Part shown: positions 674 to 46,365 of the stretch, one piece after another | Position numbering within the stretch: position 1 is the first letter of the stretch | How the letters are laid out: every line of letters begins with the position of its first letter | Sequence record: MN432485 | Reading direction: 5' to 3' (one strand) | From: Shigella phage SFP17 | DNA: 51,296 nt | Made by a program: the position numbers and the translations under genes | The notes under the pieces: generated by a model | The model's input: the letters and a program-made list of their open reading frames with translations, nothing else | What the model was told of the DNA's origin: nothing | The model's database searches: none

Positions 674-2257
674 ATGAATTTTTCGTTTGAAACCAATAAA
701 CTAACACCAAAACAAATTATCGAATTAGCTGATGCACAAGGATTGTCTCCGGTGCGCGTGTCCATTCAGGCAAACGGATACCGTCAATCGTCCAGCTTTT
801 GGGGTGAGGTTAATGATGTTAATAACGGAAACGATCGCTACCCTATAATTTCTCTTGGCAATGATGTTGATGTTGTTGGTAAGTTGGCGCGCAACATTGC
901 TCGATCAGTTCAGTTCCCTGAATCATCGGCATATATGCATTTTATCGGCTGCGTGTCTGCTGCAATGCTTGGACGCTTCACTGTTGAGTATCACGGAACG
1001 GATCAACCAACCGCTCTGTACGTTGTTACAAGCCAGCCTCCTTCAACTGGTAAATCTGCCGTTAACAGCCTGGCACTTGCTCCTATGGTTGCTGAAGTGG
1101 AAAGAATTAATGATCAGCGAAAGAAGGAGCGAAAAAAGATACAAGCTAAGCTGGCAGGTCTTGCAAAAGAGATGAAAAGCGAGCGCTCCGGCGCTGACAT
1201 GGAATCTCTGTACCAGGAGAAAGAAGATCTGGAAGAAAAACTGGAAAAGATGTGTGACATCGTTTTCCCTGTGTCCGACACAACGCCGGAAGGACTTGCA
1301 AGAATCAACAATCGCCAGGGTAACTTTGCTGTGATTTCAGACGAGGCAACAAGTATTAACAGCCTTTTAGGTCTGACATATGCCAATAGCGAACGTAAAA
1401 CCAACAGCGAACTTGTGCTAAAAGCATGGGATCATGGTCATGTTTCTATAGCTCGTGCAAACGCTGACAACAATATGAGTTTTAAAGCTCTTGGCTGTAT
1501 GGCGGTAATTGCCCAGGATGAAACAATCAATGCCATCATGGATGCAGGATCGCGCGGTATCGGTGTAAGTGAGCGTTATTTGCTTGTGCGTGAGGAATCA
1601 TTTTTAGGTCGTCGAAAGTTTGTTGATGATAACGGTGATTCTACTTATGAACCTGTTGATGGAGAACTGAAAAGCCAATATTTCAAGCTGATCCATAACA
1701 TCATGAGTGAATCGAACATCCAGCTTAAGATCAGCAAATCAGCAATGAGAGTTCTTAACATGGCTCGTCAGGAGATGGAACCGCACCTTGCCGATGGCGG
1801 AAAGTATTCGCATACAATGCTGCGCGGTGCGCTTGGCAAAATGGATAAGCAGGTGATCAGGATTGCTTCGGTTTTGCACACTATCCGCAATTGGTTTAAT
1901 CCTGGCGGATACCCTCAAAAGTCGAAAGAGATTGAGGTTGAAACCGTTCAGGAAGCACTGCTGATGTTTAGCGAGTTGAGCAAAACATACATTAGCGCCG
2001 CCAACGCTTCTGGCTATGCTGGTGATGATGCTGAAATGGGTAAACTAATCGAGATTATCACTCGACACGGTAAGGCTAACAAGGGAATCTTGAATGTGCG
2101 CGCCATATATGAGGCTGCACGAAAAGTTAAGCCGTTTGTTGGTCAGGCTGGCGTAATGAAGCGTATGGAAACGCAACTGCTGCCGATGCTTGAAGAAAGA
2201 AATTATATTTGTGTGATTAATGGCGTTGTTTTCGTAAATCCAACATTGCTGGGGTAA
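674..2257 (+). CDS. P-loop NTPase of unknown function (527 aa)
   Basis: RBS AAAGGAG 7 nt upstream; Walker A-like SQPPSTGKS and Walker B-like FAVISDEAT in translation; motif promoter at 601-645. Confidence 0.75.
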   Translation: MNFSFETNKLTPKQIIELADAQGLSPVRVSIQANGYRQSSSFWGEVNDVNNGNDRYPIISLGNDVDVVGKLARNIARSVQFPESSAYMHFIGCVSAAMLGRFTVEYHGTDQPTALYVVTSQPPSTGKSAVNSLALAPMVAEVERINDQRKKERKKIQAKLAGLAKEMKSERSGADMESLYQEKEDLEEKLEKMCDIVFPVSDTTPEGLARINNRQGNFAVISDEATSINSLLGLTYANSERKTNSELVLKAWDHGHVSIARANADNNMSFKALGCMAVIAQDETINAIMDAGSRGIGVSERYLLVREESFLGRRKFVDDNGDSTYEPVDGELKSQYFKLIHNIMSESNIQLKISKSAMRVLNMARQEMEPHLADGGKYSHTMLRGALGKMDKQVIRIASVLHTIRNWFNPGGYPQKSKEIEVETVQEALLMFSELSKTYISAANASGYAGDDAEMGKLIEIITRHGKANKGILNVRAIYEAARKVKPFVGQAGVMKRMETQLLPMLEERNYICVINGVVFVNPTLLG

Positions 2258-2259
2258 TT

Positions 2260-2652
2260 ATGTTTCTTCTGGATCTGTATCGCTGGTGTGAGTCATTCGA
2301 ATGGTTTACACGTCAACATATCGCAAAATTTATATTTCAGCATAGAGAATGTGAGCGGCTCGCAAGGGCCGCAGGATTTACGCCGAGAATGTTTGCAACC
2401 GCCGTTTCAAAAGAGTTTTGCGCAAGAATGATGACCGCTGGTTATCTTGATGGAGTTGGTGGAAAGTTCTGGTGTAAGAAAGGGTCTGCAAATCGACCTT
2501 TCTCGTTTGAACTTTACAGTCTGGAAGGTATGCAAAACGAATGGGTAATGGATGTTTTAAGGATCGGAGAAATGAGCGATGAAGAATTGTTTACGTCAAA
2601 TGCTAATAGACAAAATATTGAAGTTCTGCGCCGTAAGTTCAATCTCACATGA
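2260..2652 (+). CDS. hypothetical protein (130 aa)
   Basis: ATG 2 nt after upstream stop; long ORF in operon context. Confidence 0.55.
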   Translation: MFLLDLYRWCESFEWFTRQHIAKFIFQHRECERLARAAGFTPRMFATAVSKEFCARMMTAGYLDGVGGKFWCKKGSANRPFSFELYSLEGMQNEWVMDVLRIGEMSDEELFTSNANRQNIEVLRRKFNLT

Positions 2653-2773
2653 CGATTTCATGCACGCAATGTTAACGCTCATTCATTCTGACATGCGAGC
2701 GTTTGATATATCAGAGCATAATTTGTGTGATGATGATGGCGTTTTATTGGTTACTGTAAAGCGTATTGAATAA
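2579..2773 (+). CDS. hypothetical protein (64 aa), overlaps upstream gene out of frame
   Basis: ATG with GGAGA 9 nt upstream; ends at terminator hairpin; overlap of 74 nt makes it uncertain. Confidence 0.35.
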   Translation: MKNCLRQMLIDKILKFCAVSSISHDDFMHAMLTLIHSDMRAFDISEHNLCDDDGVLLVTVKRIE

Positions 2774-2774
2774 C

Positions 2775-2802
2775 AAAGGAGGCGTTAAGCCTCCTTTTTG
2801 TT
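2775..2802 (+). terminator. intrinsic terminator (AAAGGAGG-loop-CCTCCTTT + T-run)
   Basis: 8-bp GC-containing stem followed by TTTTTGTTG; boundary between convergent blocks. Confidence 0.7.
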
Positions 2803-3183
2803 GCCTTTGCGGTAGGAAAAGTAAAGCATTGACAAAAGACCACTGAAAATTGCAGCGCAATAGATTATAGGATCGTACCACTTCCTTTGCTCACCCTGCA
2901 CAACCTGGATTTTATCAGCCTTGATGGTGTTTGCCTGAATGGTTGACGTAGTGAAATCCTTCTTGCTGGAAGTGTCCACCTTATCAACCGCAGATTCCTT
3001 TATTGTAGTTTCCTGTTTTGTGCTGGTGTCCTGCTTTGCGGTAACGCCAATGGTCTGCTTTACGTTCTCCGCTCCTGCCTGTGCTGTGATTTCCGGCTTA
3101 CTACCGATTAATCCGGTCAGTGGCGTAACGCTTGAACATCCAGACAAAATAACAGCGATCGCGATTACTGATAACTTTCGCAT
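2785..3183 (-). CDS. unimolecular spanin-like outer-membrane lipoprotein with C-terminal TMD
   Basis: N-terminal lipobox ILSGC, C-terminal hydrophobic helix, RBS AAGGA; immediately downstream of endolysin. Confidence 0.65.
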   Translation of the reverse strand: MRKLSVIAIAVILSGCSSVTPLTGLIGSKPEITAQAGAENVKQTIGVTAKQDTSTKQETTIKESAVDKVDTSSKKDFTTSTIQANTIKADKIQVVQGEQRKWYDPIIYCAAIFSGLLSMLYFSYRKGNKKEA

Positions 3184-3185
3184 AA

Positions 3186-3674
3186 TTACAGATCCTTAAT
3201 GCAATATTTAAATTCCACCGCGCGGCGGTTGCGCAGTCCTTTAGACGTTTCTTTCTTTCCTGTTTTTGGATTGGTGTATTTTGTCCATCGCCATAACTGA
3301 TCGCACGCTTCCATATAACGACCGTTATTAATCAGCTTAAGCATAGTTGAATTTCTAAAAGCACCAGTGCCAGCATTGTATGTGAATGAATACATCGCCG
3401 CGCGCATTGTATCAGGAATGTCAACCTTCACACGTTTATCAACTTCATCCTTTGCGATCTTGATATGCTTTGCCAGTAGAGCATCACACTCTCTCTGTGT
3501 GTACGTTTTACCTGGTATTACGTCAGGTCCAGTTATTCCGGCGCAAACCGTCCATATTCCAGCAATATCTTTGTACGGCTTATATTTTACTCCTTCTATT
3601 TCCTCCAGTAGCGGAGAAGTAAGGGCAAGAGCAACGCCAAAAGCCGCAGCGGTCACTCTTTGTTTTATACTCAT
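3186..3674 (-). CDS. SAR endolysin (T4-type lysozyme, GH24)
   Basis: Catalytic E-8aa-D-5aa-T triad ([16 protein letters not shown]); Gly/Ala-rich weakly hydrophobic N-terminus typical of signal-anchor-release domains; start overlaps holin stop. Confidence 0.85.
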
Positions 3675-3889
3675 TATTTACCTCTGATCTCAATAGCTTT
3701 CTTAATATCACCGCATTCAAGAGCGTCACGTAGCGCCTTACTATCACGCCAACGAAGATAAGCGCCCCACATACCAAATGCAGCCATCAAAACTAAGCTG
3801 GCTATTGCGATAGTTGTTTGACCAGTTACCGCGCCAGTGATTGACGCGCCGCCAGTACCGGAAGTTGCAGCGTTTAAAAAATCTTTCAT
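3674..3889 (-). CDS. holin (71 aa, single TMD; pinholin-like)
   Basis: One strongly hydrophobic segment followed by charged C-terminus; RBS AGGAGA; position directly upstream of endolysin. Confidence 0.7.
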
Positions 3890-3960
3890 GATTAGATCTC
3901 CTGTAGATAAAAGTCAACAATTAATTGTTTGTATCCTAACCATTGAACTCACAAAAAGGA

Positions 3961-3992
3961 ATAAAAAAAGGGCGAAGCAAAATGCCACGCCC
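3961..3992 (-). terminator. intrinsic terminator after phosphoesterase gene
   Basis: GGGCG...CGCCC stem followed on minus strand by a run of T. Confidence 0.6.
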
Positions 3993-4035
3993 AATTAAAT
4001 TGATGATTTATATTTATATTTTAATGATTAAAAGT

Positions 4036-5151
4036 TCAATCAGCCATTTCTGGATAATGCATAAATCGCCCCACTTCTCCGTATTCTTTATCGTAAACAA
4101 TAACAGCTGCGCGGCGACGAGAACGCCATCCACCGCGCGCAGCATATGCATCTTTTGCCGCCATAGTGCTATGCACTTCAACAATGCCCAGGCTTGTTTC
4201 AGTTACTGTCTGATGATGCCAGTGCCCTACGTGAGCATACATCATTTTTGAATTTCCGAAGTCTTCGCGCCAGTCTGCCGCGCACATCATTAGTAATGTT
4301 TCAGGCTTGCGTATAGTGTGCCCGTGATGATATGCCAGGAATGTTTTGCCATACTGTGTGTGATGAACTACTCGCGGAGAAACATCAACATGCACTCGCG
4401 GCTCATTCTCATATGCTGCCGCCATTGCTGCGCGCAACCAGATCATGCCGCTTTGGTCGTGGTTTCCTTCAATAATCTGAATCTCGACGTTTTTGTGTTT
4501 TGATAACAGCTTTGTGATTGCTCGACGCACTGACCGGATGGCAACATAAACAAGTTTTGCGTATCGACTATCTTGATCTAATACGTGACCGCTTGCAGGT
4601 GTCACCGCTTCCAGTCCGTCGCTGTGAAGCATATCACCACCAATCAGCAAAACAGCTTTTTCACTATCCGGCGCGCACTGGATGGAATAATCAATGAAAT
4701 TATTCATTACGCGCTCTGCTGTTGCTGTATCCCAATTCTCGCCGCATTCATGCTTATGCGCCATTGCGCCCAAGTGCATGTCAAAGATCGGATACAGTGA
4801 TAACGTCTCGCTATAATCCTTTTGTGATTCTGGCTGTGGATCAAGTCGAGGAACTTCTTCGCTAAATGCATCCATAGCGGCCTGCATTAATGCTTCTAAC
4901 TGTTCGCGGTCCTTACTTGTCTTAATCCATGTCATAACCACATTGCCATCTTTATCAATTAGCTTTGATTCTCCAGTAACACCAAAACCAGGTGATCCGA
5001 TGGTTGTAACTTTACCTTGCTTTGCTAATCGTGCCGCGCGTCGCTCAATGCTGCGAACGTTCATACCATACTCATTAGCGATCTGCTTATATGTCTTTCC
5101 CTGCTTGCGCTCATTGATAAATTGTTCATCTGTGATTTTGATTTGCTTCAT
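4036..5151 (-). CDS. calcineurin-like metallophosphoesterase with N-terminal HTH domain (371 aa)
   Basis: HTH-like TYKQIANEYGMNVRSIERRAARLAKQG; phosphoesterase motifs GDMLHSD, GNHD, GHWHH; RBS AAGGAGA; ATG at 5151 (track start 5154 is TTG). Confidence 0.8.
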   Translation of the reverse strand: MKQIKITDEQFINERKQGKTYKQIANEYGMNVRSIERRAARLAKQGKVTTIGSPGFGVTGESKLIDKDGNVVMTWIKTSKDREQLEALMQAAMDAFSEEVPRLDPQPESQKDYSETLSLYPIFDMHLGAMAHKHECGENWDTATAERVMNNFIDYSIQCAPDSEKAVLLIGGDMLHSDGLEAVTPASGHVLDQDSRYAKLVYVAIRSVRRAITKLLSKHKNVEIQIIEGNHDQSGMIWLRAAMAAAYENEPRVHVDVSPRVVHHTQYGKTFLAYHHGHTIRKPETLLMMCAADWREDFGNSKMMYAHVGHWHHQTVTETSLGIVEVHSTMAAKDAYAARGGWRSRRRAAVIVYDKEYGEVGRFMHYPEMAD

Positions 5152-5249
5152 CAAAAATTCTCCTTATCTCATTATAACAACGTATACAATAGAGATCGCC
5201 ATCATAACAGGTAAGGGCAAAAGTAACAAACGCCACATGATAATAATCC

Positions 5250-5492
5250 TCATTTGTAGTATTTGCGCGGCTCGCGAATTTTCGCCATAGCCTCTTTGAA
5301 ATCAATCTTTGTTGGTATTGCTGGTACGCGATGCATCTTGCGCGGTCGTTCATTGAGAAATGTCATTTTGTCGCCGCTGATAATGCTTATGTCAGCAATA
5401 TCAAAATATTTTGCTATCCTGGCTATGTCTTCAGAGATCCCGCACTCCTTTGCGTGATCCCATACGGCCTGCCTACCTTGTTCAACCTTCAT
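5250..5492 (-). CDS. hypothetical protein (80 aa)
   Basis: ATG at 5492 overlapping upstream stop (ATGA); track ORF extended to a TTG at 5513. Confidence 0.5.
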   Translation of the reverse strand: MKVEQGRQAVWDHAKECGISEDIARIAKYFDIADISIISGDKMTFLNERPRKMHRVPAIPTKIDFKEAMAKIREPRKYYK

Positions 5493-5661
5493 GCTTATAA
5501 TATGCCTCCGCAAATTCTAATGGGTAGTGACCATATGCAACGCGAAGTAGAATCATTGCCGCGCCCCAATCAAGCTGCATATTGTTTTTCGTTCCACCTT
5601 TTACCGCCTCGCGTGCGGTTTGTTGCGCCTGGTCAAATGCTTTCTTGCTGTATACTACCAT
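5482..5661 (-). CDS. hypothetical small protein (59 aa, below ORF-track cutoff)
   Basis: ATG with GAGGAA RBS 6 nt upstream; sits directly downstream of motif promoter 5694-5739. Confidence 0.4.
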   Translation of the reverse strand: MVVYSKKAFDQAQQTAREAVKGGTKNNMQLDWGAAMILLRVAYGHYPLEFAEAYYKHEG

Positions 5662-41479: not shown

Positions 41480-41739
41480 TCGTGATCCCATACGTCGCAC
41501 TTTTTGACAACCAACAAACGCAGTTTGTAAGGTCGGAACTTGTGCAACTTTTTAGCGTACTCACGCGCTTCACTGTAGCTATTGAACTCCATAGCCCAAA
41601 AGCCGAAAGCATCATCCGTCAGATATTCCCAATCACCACTAATAACTCGGCGGCGTTGCAGGTAATAAATCTTGCATTCTGTGCAAGCAACGATCCGGTA
41701 TTCAGGTTTAAAGATTCGTTTTAGTGCGTTAAAAACCAT
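41476..41739 (-). CDS. hypothetical protein (87 aa)
   Basis: RBS GAGGG. Confidence 0.55.
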   Translation of the reverse strand: MVFNALKRIFKPEYRIVACTECKIYYLQRRRVISGDWEYLTDDAFGFWAMEFNSYSEAREYAKKLHKFRPYKLRLLVVKKCDVWDHE

Positions 41740-41838
41740 AGTGCGGCCCTCACTGAATAAATAAATAAGAGAATCAAGAATAACACAATCATGATTTCAT
41801 GAAAATCAAACGGTGGCTTAGGATTGGTTGCGTTGTTG

Positions 41839-42243
41839 TTATTTCCCAGCATTTCGCGCAATCCCCTTGTACATGACGTAAAAATCATTACCAGGCTTTT
41901 TGAACTTGATCGCATTGCGCGCAAGTCGGCGCATACGTCGCGCATCGTATCGCGCTCGCTGAAATGGTGTTTTCATTGTCTTAACATGGCAGCCGCGATG
42001 ATCGCTGATTCGCTTAAGCTCAATCAAAACTCCTTGAGTTGCCACTACGCAATAATGATCAAAGCCAAGTCGTCGAGTAATGATATATCCATTCTTGATG
42101 CGTGGTCGGTTAAACTCTTTGAGCGATCCGATATAGCGATCTGAAGCCGTTACAATCTCACCTTTACGAATGCCGCATCGCTCATCATATACCCAGGTTA
42201 CAACAAATTTTGTGCCTACGCGGATTTTGTGAAGATCTAACAT
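41839..42243 (-). CDS. hypothetical basic protein (134 aa)
   Basis: ATG at 42243 with RBS GAGAGGA, downstream of the -10 of motif promoter 42274-42319; track start 42288 would lie upstream of that -10. Confidence 0.55.
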   Translation of the reverse strand: MLDLHKIRVGTKFVVTWVYDERCGIRKGEIVTASDRYIGSLKEFNRPRIKNGYIITRRLGFDHYCVVATQGVLIELKRISDHRGCHVKTMKTPFQRARYDARRMRRLARNAIKFKKPGNDFYVMYKGIARNAGK

Positions 42244-42273
42244 GTTCAAGTCCTCTCGTTGATTGGTGTTTAC

Positions 42274-42319
42274 ATTATAGCGAGGCATTGCGCCCCGCTT
42301 TTAGCAATTCGTGCTATTT
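42274..42319 (-). promoter_or_regulatory. conserved-motif promoter (GAATTG variant)
   Basis: AAATAGCACGAATTGCTAAAAG + 22 nt + TATAAT; upstream of 41839-42243. Confidence 0.5.
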
Positions 42320-42904
42320 GATCTTAATGTGTTTCCACTGGACCGTTTTGATGATCTCGTCAACAGTCTTTTCTGGATCGCCATCAATCATTGTGAAGTC
42401 GTAATGTTTTACGCGGTGATGGTATCCGCTCAGGTCAATATAGTTTCGTGAATCGCCATCAAACGTGAAGCCTTCGCGATGCAGTCGGCAAATGTGCACT
42501 TCATGTCCTGCCTTAACTAGCGGCTTGATTTCTTCAGGGAATCCGCCATCACTAATTACAACAGCTAAATCTCTGTACATCTCGTGTACTTGCTCAACCA
42601 TGCGATTTCCGAAATATTGCTCGCCAAAAGCTGGCTTCATAACTTCTTCGCTAATCCAGATCATGAACTGGCGAGGAGACTTTCCTTGCAAGATTGCTTG
42701 AGGCTTTTCTTTCTGCTCGCGGTCGTTATACAGATCAATGAACTCGTCATATCGGTAAACGCCAAGCATGGAGAATGCAATATCAAACATAGGCTGTTTA
42801 AACGACGCTTTAACCGCTGCGTAACGATGGCCCGTTAAGTATGCCGCAAGCGTATCCTTGCCAACTCCTGGCGGTCCGTTAAGGATGATAATGTCTCGTT
42901 TCAT
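42314..42904 (-). CDS. P-loop kinase (polynucleotide kinase-like or dNMP kinase-like)
   Basis: N-terminal Walker A ILNGPPGVGKDT right after Met; ATG at 42904 with RBS GGAGA. Confidence 0.7.
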   Translation of the reverse strand: MKRDIIILNGPPGVGKDTLAAYLTGHRYAAVKASFKQPMFDIAFSMLGVYRYDEFIDLYNDREQKEKPQAILQGKSPRQFMIWISEEVMKPAFGEQYFGNRMVEQVHEMYRDLAVVISDGGFPEEIKPLVKAGHEVHICRLHREGFTFDGDSRNYIDLSGYHHRVKHYDFTMIDGDPEKTVDEIIKTVQWKHIKIK

Positions 42905-42905
42905 A

Positions 42906-43043
42906 TTAGTTGTCTCCATATCTGCTTGAATGTTTACCTGGGCGCTTGCGCTTATTGCGATAGCGTTGATTCATCTCTTGGTGCTCGTGGTAGCTGTATC
43001 GCTTCTTTTTGGATACGATTTTTTCGAAGTTTCGCATCTTCAT
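42906..43043 (-). CDS. hypothetical small highly basic protein (45 aa, below ORF-track cutoff)
   Basis: ORF rich in K/R immediately upstream of kinase gene; weak RBS; speculative. Confidence 0.3.
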   Translation of the reverse strand: MKMRNFEKIVSKKKRYSYHEHQEMNQRYRNKRKRPGKHSSRYGDN

Positions 43044-43098
43044 GATCTCATGTTGTTATCTCAACATAGCGCACTGCATGAATGCGCTATAGCAAGAA

Positions 43099-43284
43099 TC
43101 ACCACTTAAAGCCGCTTTCATCCCGTACAATCTGGTAAAGCGCCACCCAAAACCACACAAACCAGAACATCAGAACAAGAGGCTGATCTTTATCCGTGCA
43201 ATCACACTCTTTAACCAATGCGCGGAAGATGAATAGTCCTGAAATATAAAAGAAAATCACCAAAAATACAAGTGCATATATCAT
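43099..43284 (-). CDS. small membrane protein (61 aa)
   Basis: RBS GGAGAA; two hydrophobic segments. Confidence 0.5.
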   Translation of the reverse strand: MIYALVFLVIFFYISGLFIFRALVKECDCTDKDQPLVLMFWFVWFWVALYQIVRDESGFKW

Positions 43285-43300
43285 TTGTTCTTCTCCTCTA

Positions 43301-43600
43301 TCACTTGCGCGCCATTTTGCGAAGCTGGCGACTTGTTAGTTTGCGCGGATCGACTACGTGACTGGCAACAATTCGGCCTCCTGCAACCAATACTTTATTC
43401 CAATGGTTATGGTTGCTTTGTTCTGTTGCATACCATCTGAACATGAAGAACGCAGGAGAGATTCTGCCACACAGAGAAGGTTTGCACTTCCCGCGAGCGT
43501 CGCGATACATCGCAATTGATGTGTGGCCTTGATGGTTTACGTGGTAAAGTTGAACTCCCATCTCGTTGGTGAATTTATAAATCGCATCACGAACTAACAT
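43301..43600 (-). CDS. hypothetical protein (99 aa)
   Basis: RBS AAGGA; motif promoter 43632-43677 upstream. Confidence 0.55.
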   Translation of the reverse strand: MLVRDAIYKFTNEMGVQLYHVNHQGHTSIAMYRDARGKCKPSLCGRISPAFFMFRWYATEQSNHNHWNKVLVAGGRIVASHVVDPRKLTSRQLRKMARK

Positions 43601-43631
43601 GATGTTTTCCTTTTTCGTTGTCGATGGGCTT

Positions 43632-43677
43632 ACTATACCGCAAGCCCAACAATCTGTTTTTGCAAAAAGTGCTATTT
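43632..43677 (-). promoter_or_regulatory. conserved-motif promoter
   Basis: AAATAGCACTTTTTGCAAAAAC + 22 nt + TATAGT; upstream of 43301-43600. Confidence 0.5.
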
Positions 43678-43833
43678 ACGGACACATAACGCCGTTACAT
43701 CTTTTCCACTATCTGACATGTGGAGAACAACTTGCTTTCGTGCTTCCTGACATCTTGATTCGCCGTGGAACTCATGCGATTCAATAGCGGCGGAGTTGTA
43801 ACTTGTGACAAAGATTAAAAGTAACCAGGTCAT
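43672..43833 (-). CDS. hypothetical small protein with N-terminal hydrophobic segment (53 aa)
   Basis: ATG at 43833 with strong RBS GGAGGG, ATGA overlap with phosphatase stop. Confidence 0.4.
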   Translation of the reverse strand: MTWLLLIFVTSYNSAAIESHEFHGESRCQEARKQVVLHMSDSGKDVTALCVRK

Positions 43834-44450
43834 TTCAAACCCTCCACGCCGCAACGCAAACATTTACCATCAACCACACTAAAACAGTGCTCGCCTTCGC
43901 ATTCGATTTTTGGCTTCAATTCATCCACGCCGTGCGATTGGATGTGATTATGTGGCTTGTCGTATTCCGTGACCTGATAGGTTGTGATTCCCAGGCTGCG
44001 GAAGTGCTTAACCACGTTCGGCGAATCATCAAAAGCACACACGATGTTTTCCAGTCCGATAGCTCGCAAGACTTCCTCTTTGATGATCGTGTCTTTTCGG
44101 TTATCTTCCTTGCGGCGCATGATTAACGCGTCGTACTTGATGCCGTTATAATTTAACCAGTCGCAGGTGTCAGCCATCACCTCATCGCTGCGTCCGGTCA
44201 GGATAACAATGGCAAATCCTGACATCCACAATCCGTTAACCACTGCAACCGTGCTCTTAATCGGCGAATCGCCAACAGCCGCTTTGTTGAACTCAGACCA
44301 GCTTTCTGTAAGGTGTAAATCTTCTGTCGGCAGCAGGTGCAAACGATGAGTCCCATCGGATAACGTGCCGTCAAGGTCAACGACAACAATCGGCTTGCTC
44401 GTGGAAAAATGGTATTTGCTTCCCCAAAGTTCAAATTCGTATTTTTTCAT
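43830..44450 (-). CDS. HAD-family phosphatase with C-terminal zinc ribbon (polynucleotide 3-phosphatase-like)
   Basis: HAD motif I VVVDLDGTLSD near N-terminus; C-terminal CEGEHC...CLRCG; ATG at 44450. Confidence 0.7.
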   Translation of the reverse strand: MKKYEFELWGSKYHFSTSKPIVVVDLDGTLSDGTHRLHLLPTEDLHLTESWSEFNKAAVGDSPIKSTVAVVNGLWMSGFAIVILTGRSDEVMADTCDWLNYNGIKYDALIMRRKEDNRKDTIIKEEVLRAIGLENIVCAFDDSPNVVKHFRSLGITTYQVTEYDKPHNHIQSHGVDELKPKIECEGEHCFSVVDGKCLRCGVEGLK

Positions 44451-44461
44451 TATCAAACCTA

Positions 44462-44683
44462 TCAATTAAAATGGATTTGCTTGTATTCGATTTCATCTGC
44501 CAGATCATTTAACTTATCCGCCAGCTTGCGCACCTGGTCAACGGTGAGTATCGACCTAAAATCCGGCCTGCGACCACCTTCAAGCGTGCCATCAATAAAC
44601 ACTCTATCGCCGAACTTATATACTTCAAGTGCATCGCCATGATTATCAATAAACTTGTGCTTAACGCGCTTATTTGTTTCCAT
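44462..44683 (-). CDS. hypothetical protein (73 aa)
   Basis: RBS GAGGTGA. Confidence 0.55.
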   Translation of the reverse strand: METNKRVKHKFIDNHGDALEVYKFGDRVFIDGTLEGGRRPDFRSILTVDQVRKLADKLNDLADEIEYKQIHFN

Positions 44684-44900
44684 CTTTCACCTCTTCAAAT
44701 TCAGCAATTACCATAGCGTGTGCCATAACCTTAGTGCCTTCACCACCGTTCAGGAACATGCGATGCCCTTTACTATTGCTCACGTAAAAGGATCCGGTTG
44801 ATGATTTCAGCTTTTGCGCCGTATAGATTTCGCCAGGCTTGAACATTCCAGCACAACCATAGTTAACGGAAACGCATTTCATCTTCTTGTTAATATACAT
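44670..44900 (-). CDS. hypothetical protein (76 aa)
   Basis: ATG at 44900 with RBS AAGGA downstream of motif promoter -10; track start 44963 lies inside the promoter. Confidence 0.5.
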   Translation of the reverse strand: MYINKKMKCVSVNYGCAGMFKPGEIYTAQKLKSSTGSFYVSNSKGHRMFLNGGEGTKVMAHAMVIAEFEEVKDGNK

Positions 44901-44930
44901 CGTTTTATATCCTTCGTTGAAAGTGAGGCC

Positions 44931-44975
44931 ATTATACCTGGCCCCACATTTGAGTTTTAACAATTCGTGCTATTT
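44931..44975 (-). promoter_or_regulatory. conserved-motif promoter (GAATTG variant)
   Basis: AAATAGCACGAATTGTTAAAAC + 21 nt + TATAAT; upstream of 44670-44900. Confidence 0.5.
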
Positions 44976-45879
44976 ACACTTTAACCTTCCACTTAACCAT
45001 CGTTCCGCGCTTGATGCTGATCTCTCCTGCAACAGTCCGGTTTTTCGCACTGCCATAATGAAGCAGAAGAATAACAACGTCATCATGAATCTCGATCGTC
45101 TTTGGCTTTGCCGTTAATTCAAACCATGTGCCATCCGCAATTTGGACGCCTTTTAGCGTGGCGGCAAGCGGCATGTCTTCAATTGCGCCATGAGTTACGA
45201 TTTCTTGATGGGCAAAGGCGCTCTTATCAATACGCCATCCTCCGGACGCCTTAATTGTTTGACTGTGAATCTGCTCACCAATACGTCGAGCGGCGTTATC
45301 TATCGCCTGCGCAAAATATGATTTACCTCCGCCAATTGGCGCATCTCCAAACAAGTGTTTCGTAATATCTTCCACGTAATACACTTTATCCTTTTCGTTG
45401 TGCGGATTGAATTTGTTGTGACCATTGACAAAGAAATCAACTTTCAACTCCGATTTCTGACCATCGCTATAAACGCCATTGTCGCGCGATGTGAAGCGAA
45501 TCGTTGAATTACCAACCGTGTAGAACGTGATCGGATACTTGATATTGTCCACACTTAAGCACCACAGCTTTTTGTAGTCGCAGGTTTTCATCTCGACCGT
45601 ATGAATCTCTGATCGCTCAGTTGAGCGCACTGGTAACACTTGGCCTTTATATGGCTTATAGTGCAAACATGTGTAGCCTGGCATTGCGTAGCCGTAGTCA
45701 TGTATTGAGTTGTAGTGCTTATTGTGCGCATCAATGAAGTGCTCAATCTCCATAGTTGAAACATCAGGCTTTCCGTATTCGTTAAACTTAGTGCATGTAT
45801 TTTTGTCGGAATACATGAAGTGACCAACGCCGCGAGATTGGAAGGTGATCGGGAATTTAATGTCAGCTAATTTTAACAT
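44974..45879 (-). CDS. hypothetical protein (301 aa) with N-terminal internal repeat
   Basis: RBS AGGAGAAAG; repeated IK(F/Y)PITF segments; His-rich; no family recognised. Confidence 0.7.
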   Translation of the reverse strand: MLKLADIKFPITFQSRGVGHFMYSDKNTCTKFNEYGKPDVSTMEIEHFIDAHNKHYNSIHDYGYAMPGYTCLHYKPYKGQVLPVRSTERSEIHTVEMKTCDYKKLWCLSVDNIKYPITFYTVGNSTIRFTSRDNGVYSDGQKSELKVDFFVNGHNKFNPHNEKDKVYYVEDITKHLFGDAPIGGGKSYFAQAIDNAARRIGEQIHSQTIKASGGWRIDKSAFAHQEIVTHGAIEDMPLAATLKGVQIADGTWFELTAKPKTIEIHDDVVILLLHYGSAKNRTVAGEISIKRGTMVKWKVKV

Positions 45880-45934
45880 GGTGCTTTCTCCTGATTGGTT
45901 TAACTGGGCGACGCCGTGCCGCCCTATGTGATTT

Positions 45935-45980
45935 ATTATGCCTGGTTATCGTTTTTGAGTTTTGACAAAAAGTGCTATTT
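45935..45980 (-). promoter_or_regulatory. conserved-motif promoter
   Basis: AAATAGCACTTTTTGTCAAAAC + 22 nt + CATAAT; upstream of 44974-45879. Confidence 0.5.
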
Positions 45981-46164
45981 AGAATTTTACCTCTTCCACA
46001 AGCTCAACCATTTTATAGCCCAGCCGATAAGAGTCACCGAACAACAAGATCCCCATAAATTCATCGTGGCTTATTGACTCTTTGCCAACCGTTCTAAGCT
46101 CGCCGTTGTGAATCACAGTATCGCCGATCTTGATTTCTGATTTATGGACTAATTTCGTCTTCAT
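45979..46164 (-). CDS. hypothetical protein (61 aa)
   Basis: RBS AGGTGA. Confidence 0.5.
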   Translation of the reverse strand: MKTKLVHKSEIKIGDTVIHNGELRTVGKESISHDEFMGILLFGDSYRLGYKMVELVEEVKF

Positions 46165-46179
46165 TTATTCACCTGCTAA

Positions 46180-46365
46180 TTAAAAGAAAGCTACATAGTT
46201 TGCAATGCCTTTGGCGTCGTCGTTTGGCATTGCTTTTACAGCCAGGTCATAACCTGCCTCTACCTTCTGCTTTGCTGTTTCTTCGTTGTATCCCCAGATG
46301 ACCAGGATTTTAACTACGTTTTCTTTGTTCAGGACTTTAAGGTCTTTGGTGATGCGACGTGCCAT
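46180..46365 (-). CDS. hypothetical protein (61 aa)
   Basis: RBS GAGGAAAA; motif promoter upstream. Confidence 0.5.
   Translation of the reverse strand: MARRITKDLKVLNKENVVKILVIWGYNEETAKQKVEAGYDLAVKAMPNDDAKGIANYVAFF

Follow-up and report, generated by a model that had tools for sequence, protein, structure and literature searches.

The genome of Shigella phage SFP17 (sequence record MN432485), a stretch of 51,296 nucleotides referred to below as the window, carries at positions 42314-44450 a HAD-family phosphatase gene and a P-loop kinase gene that an initial annotation had read as the two halves of a split polynucleotide kinase-phosphatase (Pnkp). Every gene around this locus lies on the minus strand, with the phosphatase gene upstream and the kinase gene downstream:

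43830..44450, minus strand: Pnkp-type HAD (DxDGT) phosphatase, 206 amino acids (Pfam HAD_PNKP, phrog_415)
42314..42904, minus strand: P-loop kinase of the deoxynucleoside monophosphate (dNMP) kinase family (T5 Dnk / T4 gp1 lineage), 196 amino acids (phrog_139; D-G-G-F and G-D-S-R signatures)

The phosphatase open reading frame (ORF) runs from 44450 to 43830, begins with MKKY like its 206-amino-acid homolog P0121, and carries the expected DxDGT motif as DLDGT at residues 25-29. In the ORF list the kinase frame spans 42919 to 42314; the start at 42904 proposed by the initial annotation is correct because kinase homologs open with MKRD and a GGAG lies 9 nucleotides ahead of this ATG. The Walker A motif said to follow the initiating Met is indeed found shortly after it (GPPGVGKDT, residues 10-18). 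Neither gene is a chance ORF, since homologs are abundant both in protein searches (276 for the kinase, 631 for the phosphatase) and in tblastn searches, which matched the kinase in 1464 phage records and the phosphatase in 2931. The latter number includes classical Pnkp proteins. The pairing of the two genes was counted from the kinase side.

A megablast search with positions 41800-45900 matched 128 phage records. The closest relatives are members of Hanrivervirus (Drexlerviridae, Tempevirinae), namely G29-2, aaroes, egaa, JLBYU41 and pSf-1, with 91-95% identity and genomes of 49-52 kb, and the window is an essentially complete T1-type genome. Between 20 and 39 records labeled "Campylobacter phage" also match the region or the kinase (MG065665.1, MG065652.1), with phage A131 matching the kinase at 93% protein identity. 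This suggests that some of these records are mislabeled coliphages or contaminants.

Family membership of the phosphatase and the kinase

The HAD protein scores 76 bits against Pfam HAD_PNKP (cutoff 27.6) and matches phrog_415 (E = 2e-65); no NCBIfam model scores past its cutoff. In the PDB its sequence matches only phosphatase domains, namely those of Pnkp1 (4xrp) and T4 Pnkp (1ltq, 5uj0). In T4 Pnkp, Asp165 is the nucleophile, Asp167 the acid-base, Ser211 and Lys258 contact the phosphate, and Asp278 is a magnesium ligand (PMC3592404). These five residues align to D25, D27, T85, K124 and D142 of the HAD protein, and T29 and the DD magnesium site (D141/D142) also align with Pnkp-type phosphatases. 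Three more residues of T4 Pnkp, R176, R213 and D254, which we take to be essential for phosphatase activity, align with R36, R87 and D120, R36 lying nine residues past the second Asp as it does in T4. An alignment of 21 sequences, which includes proteins joining a Pnk kinase to a HAD domain, shows no change at R36 or R87 and hardly any at D120. A signature of the HAD subfamily, HR.H...W..F, is also found in such bifunctional proteins (P0399, P0403-P0406), which have an N-terminal AAA_33 Pnk kinase. By sequence and fold, the HAD protein is thus a close relative of the 3'-phosphatase domains of T4 Pnkp and Pnkp1 and a predicted 3'-phosphoesterase.

In this protein an N-terminal beta-hairpin is followed by the HAD core (residues 21-162), then by a His-rich stretch that is conserved (163-175) and finally by a Cys tail that varies (182-206). 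T1-like homologs show no variation in the His-rich stretch (Y-DKPH-H-Q-SHGV), even though its predicted local distance difference test score (pLDDT) in the model is below 50; binding of a metal or of a partner could be its role. The tail contains C184, C189, C197 and C200 (Cx4C...CxxC) and had been described as a C-terminal zinc ribbon, a proposal we reject: the Cys residues are not conserved (P0157 and P0184, for instance, have W in place of C189, in the first pair), the majority of homologs stop at 177-183 amino acids without any tail, and the AlphaFold2 model of the tail has a pLDDT of 42-74. The tails are modular (P0122, P0124, P0129), being absent (177-183 amino acids), Cys-containing (204-211), an unrelated segment of about 55 amino acids (236-237), or both (264).

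The kinase belongs to another lineage. It matches phrog_139, "deoxynucleoside monophosphate kinase", over nearly its whole length (E = 1.7e-51), and its best match among solved structures is 1DEK. Matches in BFVD are mostly annotated as dNMP kinases and none as polynucleotide kinase. Pfam and NCBIfam gave nothing past their cutoffs, and PDB sequence searches with the kinase alone or with its profile gave matches at the level of the P-loop only. Both BLASTP and hhalign picked up T4 gp1 and T5 Dnk, an enzyme active on all four dNMPs. When hhalign compared the family profile with T5 Dnk or T4 gp1 as single sequences, the alignment covered no more than the N-terminal 70-80 residues, and the full-length correspondence comes from a MAFFT motif alignment, which is less rigorous. 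In that alignment the motifs GKDT, DR(E), SPR..M, D..F..E and an Arg in the pre-lid strand line up along the whole kinase. All residue numbers of the T4 gp1 sequence match Table 2 of PMC10653934. In BFVD, A0A6J5RPH7 and A0A7S6HV70 showed the kinase fold joined to a nucleoside 2-deoxyribosyltransferase and also within a 518-amino-acid protein whose annotation includes a DOD homing-endonuclease domain, the latter possibly an intein or a homing-endonuclease insertion.

In 1DEK the dNMP phosphate is bound by K37, R68, R132 and R177 (PMC10653934, Table 2). T4 residues R68, R132, M135, D175, E181 and R197 correspond to the invariant R67, R83, M86, D124, E130 and R145 of the kinase, so that the counterparts of the base-binding D175/E181 and of the ATP-site R197 are all retained. 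Two features characterize the subfamily among the 150 closest cluster representatives: the variable positions of D-x-x-F are Gly, Ser or Cys followed by Gly in 139 (exactly D-G-G-F in 118), and a D-S-R lid motif is present in 138.

Similarity to Pnk kinase domains was not found in sequence or fold. GPPGVGKDT fits the P-loop pattern GxxGxGK[ST] with an Asp after the Lys, which is the form of the Dnk family and not of Pnk. In Pnk kinases, the general base Asp35 and Arg38 (D-x-x-R) contact the 5'-OH nucleotide (PMC2831316). This motif is not conserved here: in a 34-sequence alignment there is no invariant Asp or Arg past strand 2, and the column of D46 is variable. Genuine Pnk-HAD proteins (P0399, P0403-P0406) have N[KR]DLLR at the same position. 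By its sequence and predicted fold, the kinase therefore falls within the dNMP-kinase lineage of T5 Dnk and T4 gp1, as a member of a distinct subfamily, with dNMPs as its presumed substrates. A dNMP kinase was the alternative offered by the initial annotation, and the phrog_139 match, the 1DEK fold and the T5 Dnk / T4 gp1 motifs argue for it. The proposed Pnkp pair thus holds for its phosphatase half, which is Pnkp-type with its catalytic residues kept, and fails for its kinase half: comparison with Pnk domains places this protein with the dNMP kinases and not with T4-type Pnk.

Gene linkage, fusions and neighboring genes

We examined linkage in 81 loci, comprising 80 IMG/VR loci found with the kinase profile and the window itself. 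The HAD gene lies upstream on the same strand in 68 of them, and the order is invariably HAD then kinase. The two genes are adjacent or overlapping in 32 loci and 0.6-2 kb apart in 36, the window falling in the latter class. Pairing persists after clustering of the kinases: at 90% identity 28 of the 35 clusters retain it, and at 70% identity 16 of 22 do. Overlaps of 4 bp between stop and start codons occur in phages as different as Webervirus GML-KpCol1 and an Aeromonas phage of the Autographiviridae.

The two proteins also exist as one polypeptide. An exhaustive search of representatives yielded P0257 (403 amino acids) and P0264 (461), and a follow-up search yielded P0387 (413). All three have an N-terminal HAD_PNKP domain, a C-terminal Dnk-like kinase and a homologous linker; their pairwise identities are 37-74%, and they come from four independent samples. 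A segment related to the His-rich stretch precedes the linker in these fusions.

Because the order is conserved, overlaps are frequent and fusions exist, the HAD phosphatase and the kinase belong together, as first suspected, and this claim is now strongly supported. They form a conserved, probably co-transcribed phage module with the phosphatase ahead of the kinase, and probably act together. The HAD gene is absent from 13 of the 81 loci. Where it is missing, the kinase is found next to a dUTPase or near a thymidylate synthase, and in eight HAD-less loci another metallophosphoesterase lies directly upstream of the kinase.

The following genes of the window accompany the pair or recur beside it in other phages:

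43672..43833, minus strand: small ORF of about 53 amino acids with a hydrophobic N-terminus (ORF list; phrog_5579, E = 3e-8; annotated in aaroes and JLBYU41)
43301..43600, minus strand: small ORF of 99 amino acids (phrog_8382, E = 1e-15; annotated in aaroes)
43099..43284, minus strand: small ORF of 61 amino acids, predicted membrane protein (phrog_9755, E = 3e-28; annotated in relatives)
42906..43043, minus strand: small, very basic ORF of 45 amino acids (phrog_8176, E = 1e-5; annotated in JLBYU41)
4036..5154, minus strand: calcineurin-type metallophosphoesterase fused to a helix-turn-helix (HTH), "DNA repair exonuclease" (phrog_704, E = 2e-151)

Four small ORFs with PHROG support, and not the three first counted, thus separate the pair; annotations of relatives include three or four of them. 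The ATG of the first overlaps the HAD stop codon, and the stop codon of the last lies 1 nucleotide ahead of the kinase ATG. This last ORF has a weak, sub-cutoff match to PF08200 (T7 gp1.1; E = 0.008). No promoter-like or terminator-like site was found on the coding strand between HAD and kinase, and a scan of 41700-46200 gave such sites at no more than their frequency in shuffled sequence. Two genes upstream of HAD, a 301-amino-acid ORF (44974-45879, minus strand) matches phrog_7116 (E = 1e-74, unknown function) and no Pfam family; it has an internal repeat (IKFPITF... / IKYPITF...) and lacks the ligase motif KxDG.

The phrog_704 gene of the window lies away from the pair, beside the lysis genes. 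Its product had no match in Pfam or in a PDB sequence search, and we identify it as a metallophosphoesterase because 30 homologs preserve its motifs DMH, GGD, GNHD, HHGH and GHWHH; the protein also has an N-terminal HTH. Homologs of phrog_704 are found closely upstream of the pair in 27 of the 81 loci, directly before HAD in 25 and a few hundred bases off in two, and directly after the fusion gene in two lineages. In 14 of the 81 loci the kinase is followed, immediately or within 1.6 kb, by a gene for an ATP-dependent DNA ligase. Aeromonas phage Aer_P220 (locus L004) carries in one contiguous block (1106-5493) a 5'-3' exonuclease, endonuclease VII, the metallophosphoesterase, HAD, kinase and ATP-dependent DNA ligase, and loci L058 and L069 match only the metallophosphoesterase, HAD, kinase and ligase portion. 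The enzyme content of the Aer_P220 block is akin to that of end-healing and sealing systems. A ligase, for DNA or RNA, did not turn up among the scanned ORFs of the window itself, and the annotation of the 51.3-kb relative JLBYU41 lists none, in agreement with the earlier remark that no RNA ligase is evident.

Proposed role in host-DNA recycling and alternatives

We favor, with a probability of roughly 0.55, a role for the module in supporting phage DNA synthesis from degraded host DNA. In such a pathway the metallophosphoesterase nuclease, encoded ahead of the pair in many phages, would supply the DNA breakdown. The HAD protein would strip 3'-phosphates off the products, be they 3'-phosphorylated ends, oligonucleotides or nucleotides, and the kinase would turn the resulting 5'-dNMPs into deoxynucleoside diphosphates for host Ndk and host DNA polymerase III. 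We favor recycling because of the biology of T1 and TLS, the published gene order, the dUTPase and thymidylate synthase neighbors, and the evidence from fold and motifs. T1 and TLS degrade the host chromosome, reuse its nucleotides and encode no DNA polymerase, and in TLS Gp09 has been re-annotated as a polynucleotide kinase and Gp14 as a dNMP kinase (PMC11447400). A 2026 study of Drexlerviridae (KanT1) reported the order DNA repair exonuclease, polynucleotide kinase, dNMP kinase, and proposed an extended replication module with greater nucleotide supply (PMC13164509). Our literature searches returned genome-annotation statements only, and no biochemical study of the HAD-kinase module.

Several points weigh against recycling. 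Salvage has no obvious need of a 3'-phosphatase, since dNMP-releasing nucleases mostly leave the phosphate at the 5' position. By analogy with Pnkp, coupling or fusion of a phosphatase and a kinase would be expected for two activities on one substrate molecule, and the closest relatives of the HAD protein include genuine bifunctional proteins in which it is joined to an AAA_33 Pnk kinase. The acceptor site of the kinase, as judged from the alignment, also differs from that of characterized dNMP kinases, because the equivalent of T4 R177 (R172 in T5), which binds both the phosphate and the base of the dNMP, is an invariant Gly (G126), and the column of T4 K37 is not conserved (F45 here, with an invariant K41 four residues earlier). 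The invariant lid residue R158 may compensate for the lost R177. Finally, literature searches found no assayed member of the D-G-G-F kinase subfamily or of the standalone HAD.

The most serious alternative, which we consider unlikely, is a non-orthologous Pnkp acting on DNA, in which a Dnk-like kinase was recruited as a polynucleotide 5'-OH kinase beside a Pnkp-type 3'-phosphatase, the two healing 5'-OH/3'-phosphate breaks. The metallophosphoesterase, as nuclease or phosphoesterase, would often assist, and sealing would fall to the phage ATP-dependent DNA ligase or, in T1-like phages, to host LigA. One HAD subfamily is fused either to a Pnk AAA_33 kinase (P0399, P0403-P0406) or to a Dnk-like kinase (P0257, P0387, P0264), and these alternative fusions look like the displacement of one kinase partner by another. 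Translational coupling and fusion of the two activities, the nearby DNA ligase in 14 of the 81 loci (including the metallophosphoesterase-HAD-kinase-ligase arrangement of L058, L069 and Aer_P220) and the lost R177 equivalent, which suggests an altered acceptor, are all in line with this idea. In its strongest form, it is conceivable, if doubtful, that an enzyme of the dNMP-kinase fold with the D-G-G-F and G-D-S-R signatures displaced the Pnk-type kinase and gave a previously unrecognized polynucleotide kinase-phosphatase that is split, overlapping or fused, with the domain order of mammalian PNKP. If this were true, the displaced-kinase Pnkp, together with the HTH-fused metallophosphoesterase, would heal 5'-OH/3'-phosphate DNA breaks and leave the sealing to a DNA ligase of the phage or host; host nucleases might make these breaks, as might damage suffered by virion DNA.

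It is improbable that the module edits nucleotide pools or removes signaling nucleotides, a role in which HAD would act on mononucleotides as a 3'- or 5'-nucleotidase and, jointly with the kinase, would tune dNTP pools or eliminate certain nucleotides. No other family scores nearly as well as HAD_PNKP, R36, R87 and D120 are conserved at the T4 positions that we presume to be essential, and a kinase fused to a nucleotidase acting on the same nucleotide would run a futile cycle. We also think it quite improbable that the genes are functionally unrelated and lie close together merely as parts of a shared early DNA-metabolism block. The four unrelated small ORFs between the pair in the window and the 13 kinase loci that lack HAD fit this explanation; the invariant gene order, the 4-bp overlaps in distant phage families and fusions kept down to 37% identity speak against it.

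The role suggested by the initial annotation, T4-style repair of transfer RNA cleaved by anticodon nucleases, is very unlikely: the HAD protein is homologous to the RNA-repair phosphatases of T4 Pnkp and Pnkp1, but the kinase is not Pnk-type and no RNA ligase was found in the scanned window ORFs or in relatives. E. coli RtcB requires 3'-phosphate or 2',3'-cyclic phosphate ends plus 5'-OH ends and could not join the healed ends, so that healing without a classical ligase would block repair.

Comparison with known systems and significance

The module differs from T4 PseT/Pnkp and from Pnkp1 of the Pnkp1-Rnl-Hen1 system in using another family of P-loop kinase, in placing the phosphatase before the kinase, in having separate genes and in having no ligase that we could find. 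With T5 Dnk, T4 gp1 (1DEK/1DEL) and P. putida PP_1964, the kinase shares GxGKDT, two acceptor-phosphate Arg residues, the D...E pair that binds the base and a lid Arg. Compared with T5 Dnk and T4 gp1, it is shorter (about 190 versus 241-250 amino acids), has D-G-G-F in place of D-x-R-[F/Q] together with the G-D-S-R lid motif, and belongs to a subfamily that is usually coupled to a HAD phosphatase.

Mammalian PNKP, a DNA 3'-phosphatase and 5'-kinase, has its phosphatase domain at the N-terminus and its kinase domain at the C-terminus, and the phage HAD-kinase fusions share this domain order. The metallophosphoesterase-(HAD)-kinase-ligase cassettes of some phages also recall the set of activities of Clostridium thermocellum Pnkp (kinase, metallophosphoesterase, ligase). 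This likeness is one of gene content only: the phage proteins are separate, their kinase is of a different family and their ligase is an ATP-dependent DNA ligase.

Both protein families were already known, and their gene order has been mentioned in the literature. What is new is the breadth and strictness of the coupling over phage families, the natural fusions and the D-G-G-F / G-D-S-R active-site signature. It also emerges that in many T1-like and other phages the label "polynucleotide kinase" or "kinase-phosphatase" sits on a HAD protein without a kinase domain, and that the neighboring true kinase is variously labeled "ATP-binding protein", "hypothetical protein" or dNMP kinase. Recognizing one conserved module, at times a single polypeptide, corrects these database labels. 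The module is also a unit that can be put to the test, being either a host-DNA recycling cassette of phages without their own polymerase and ligase, or a new kind of enzyme for healing DNA ends that uses the dNMP-kinase fold.

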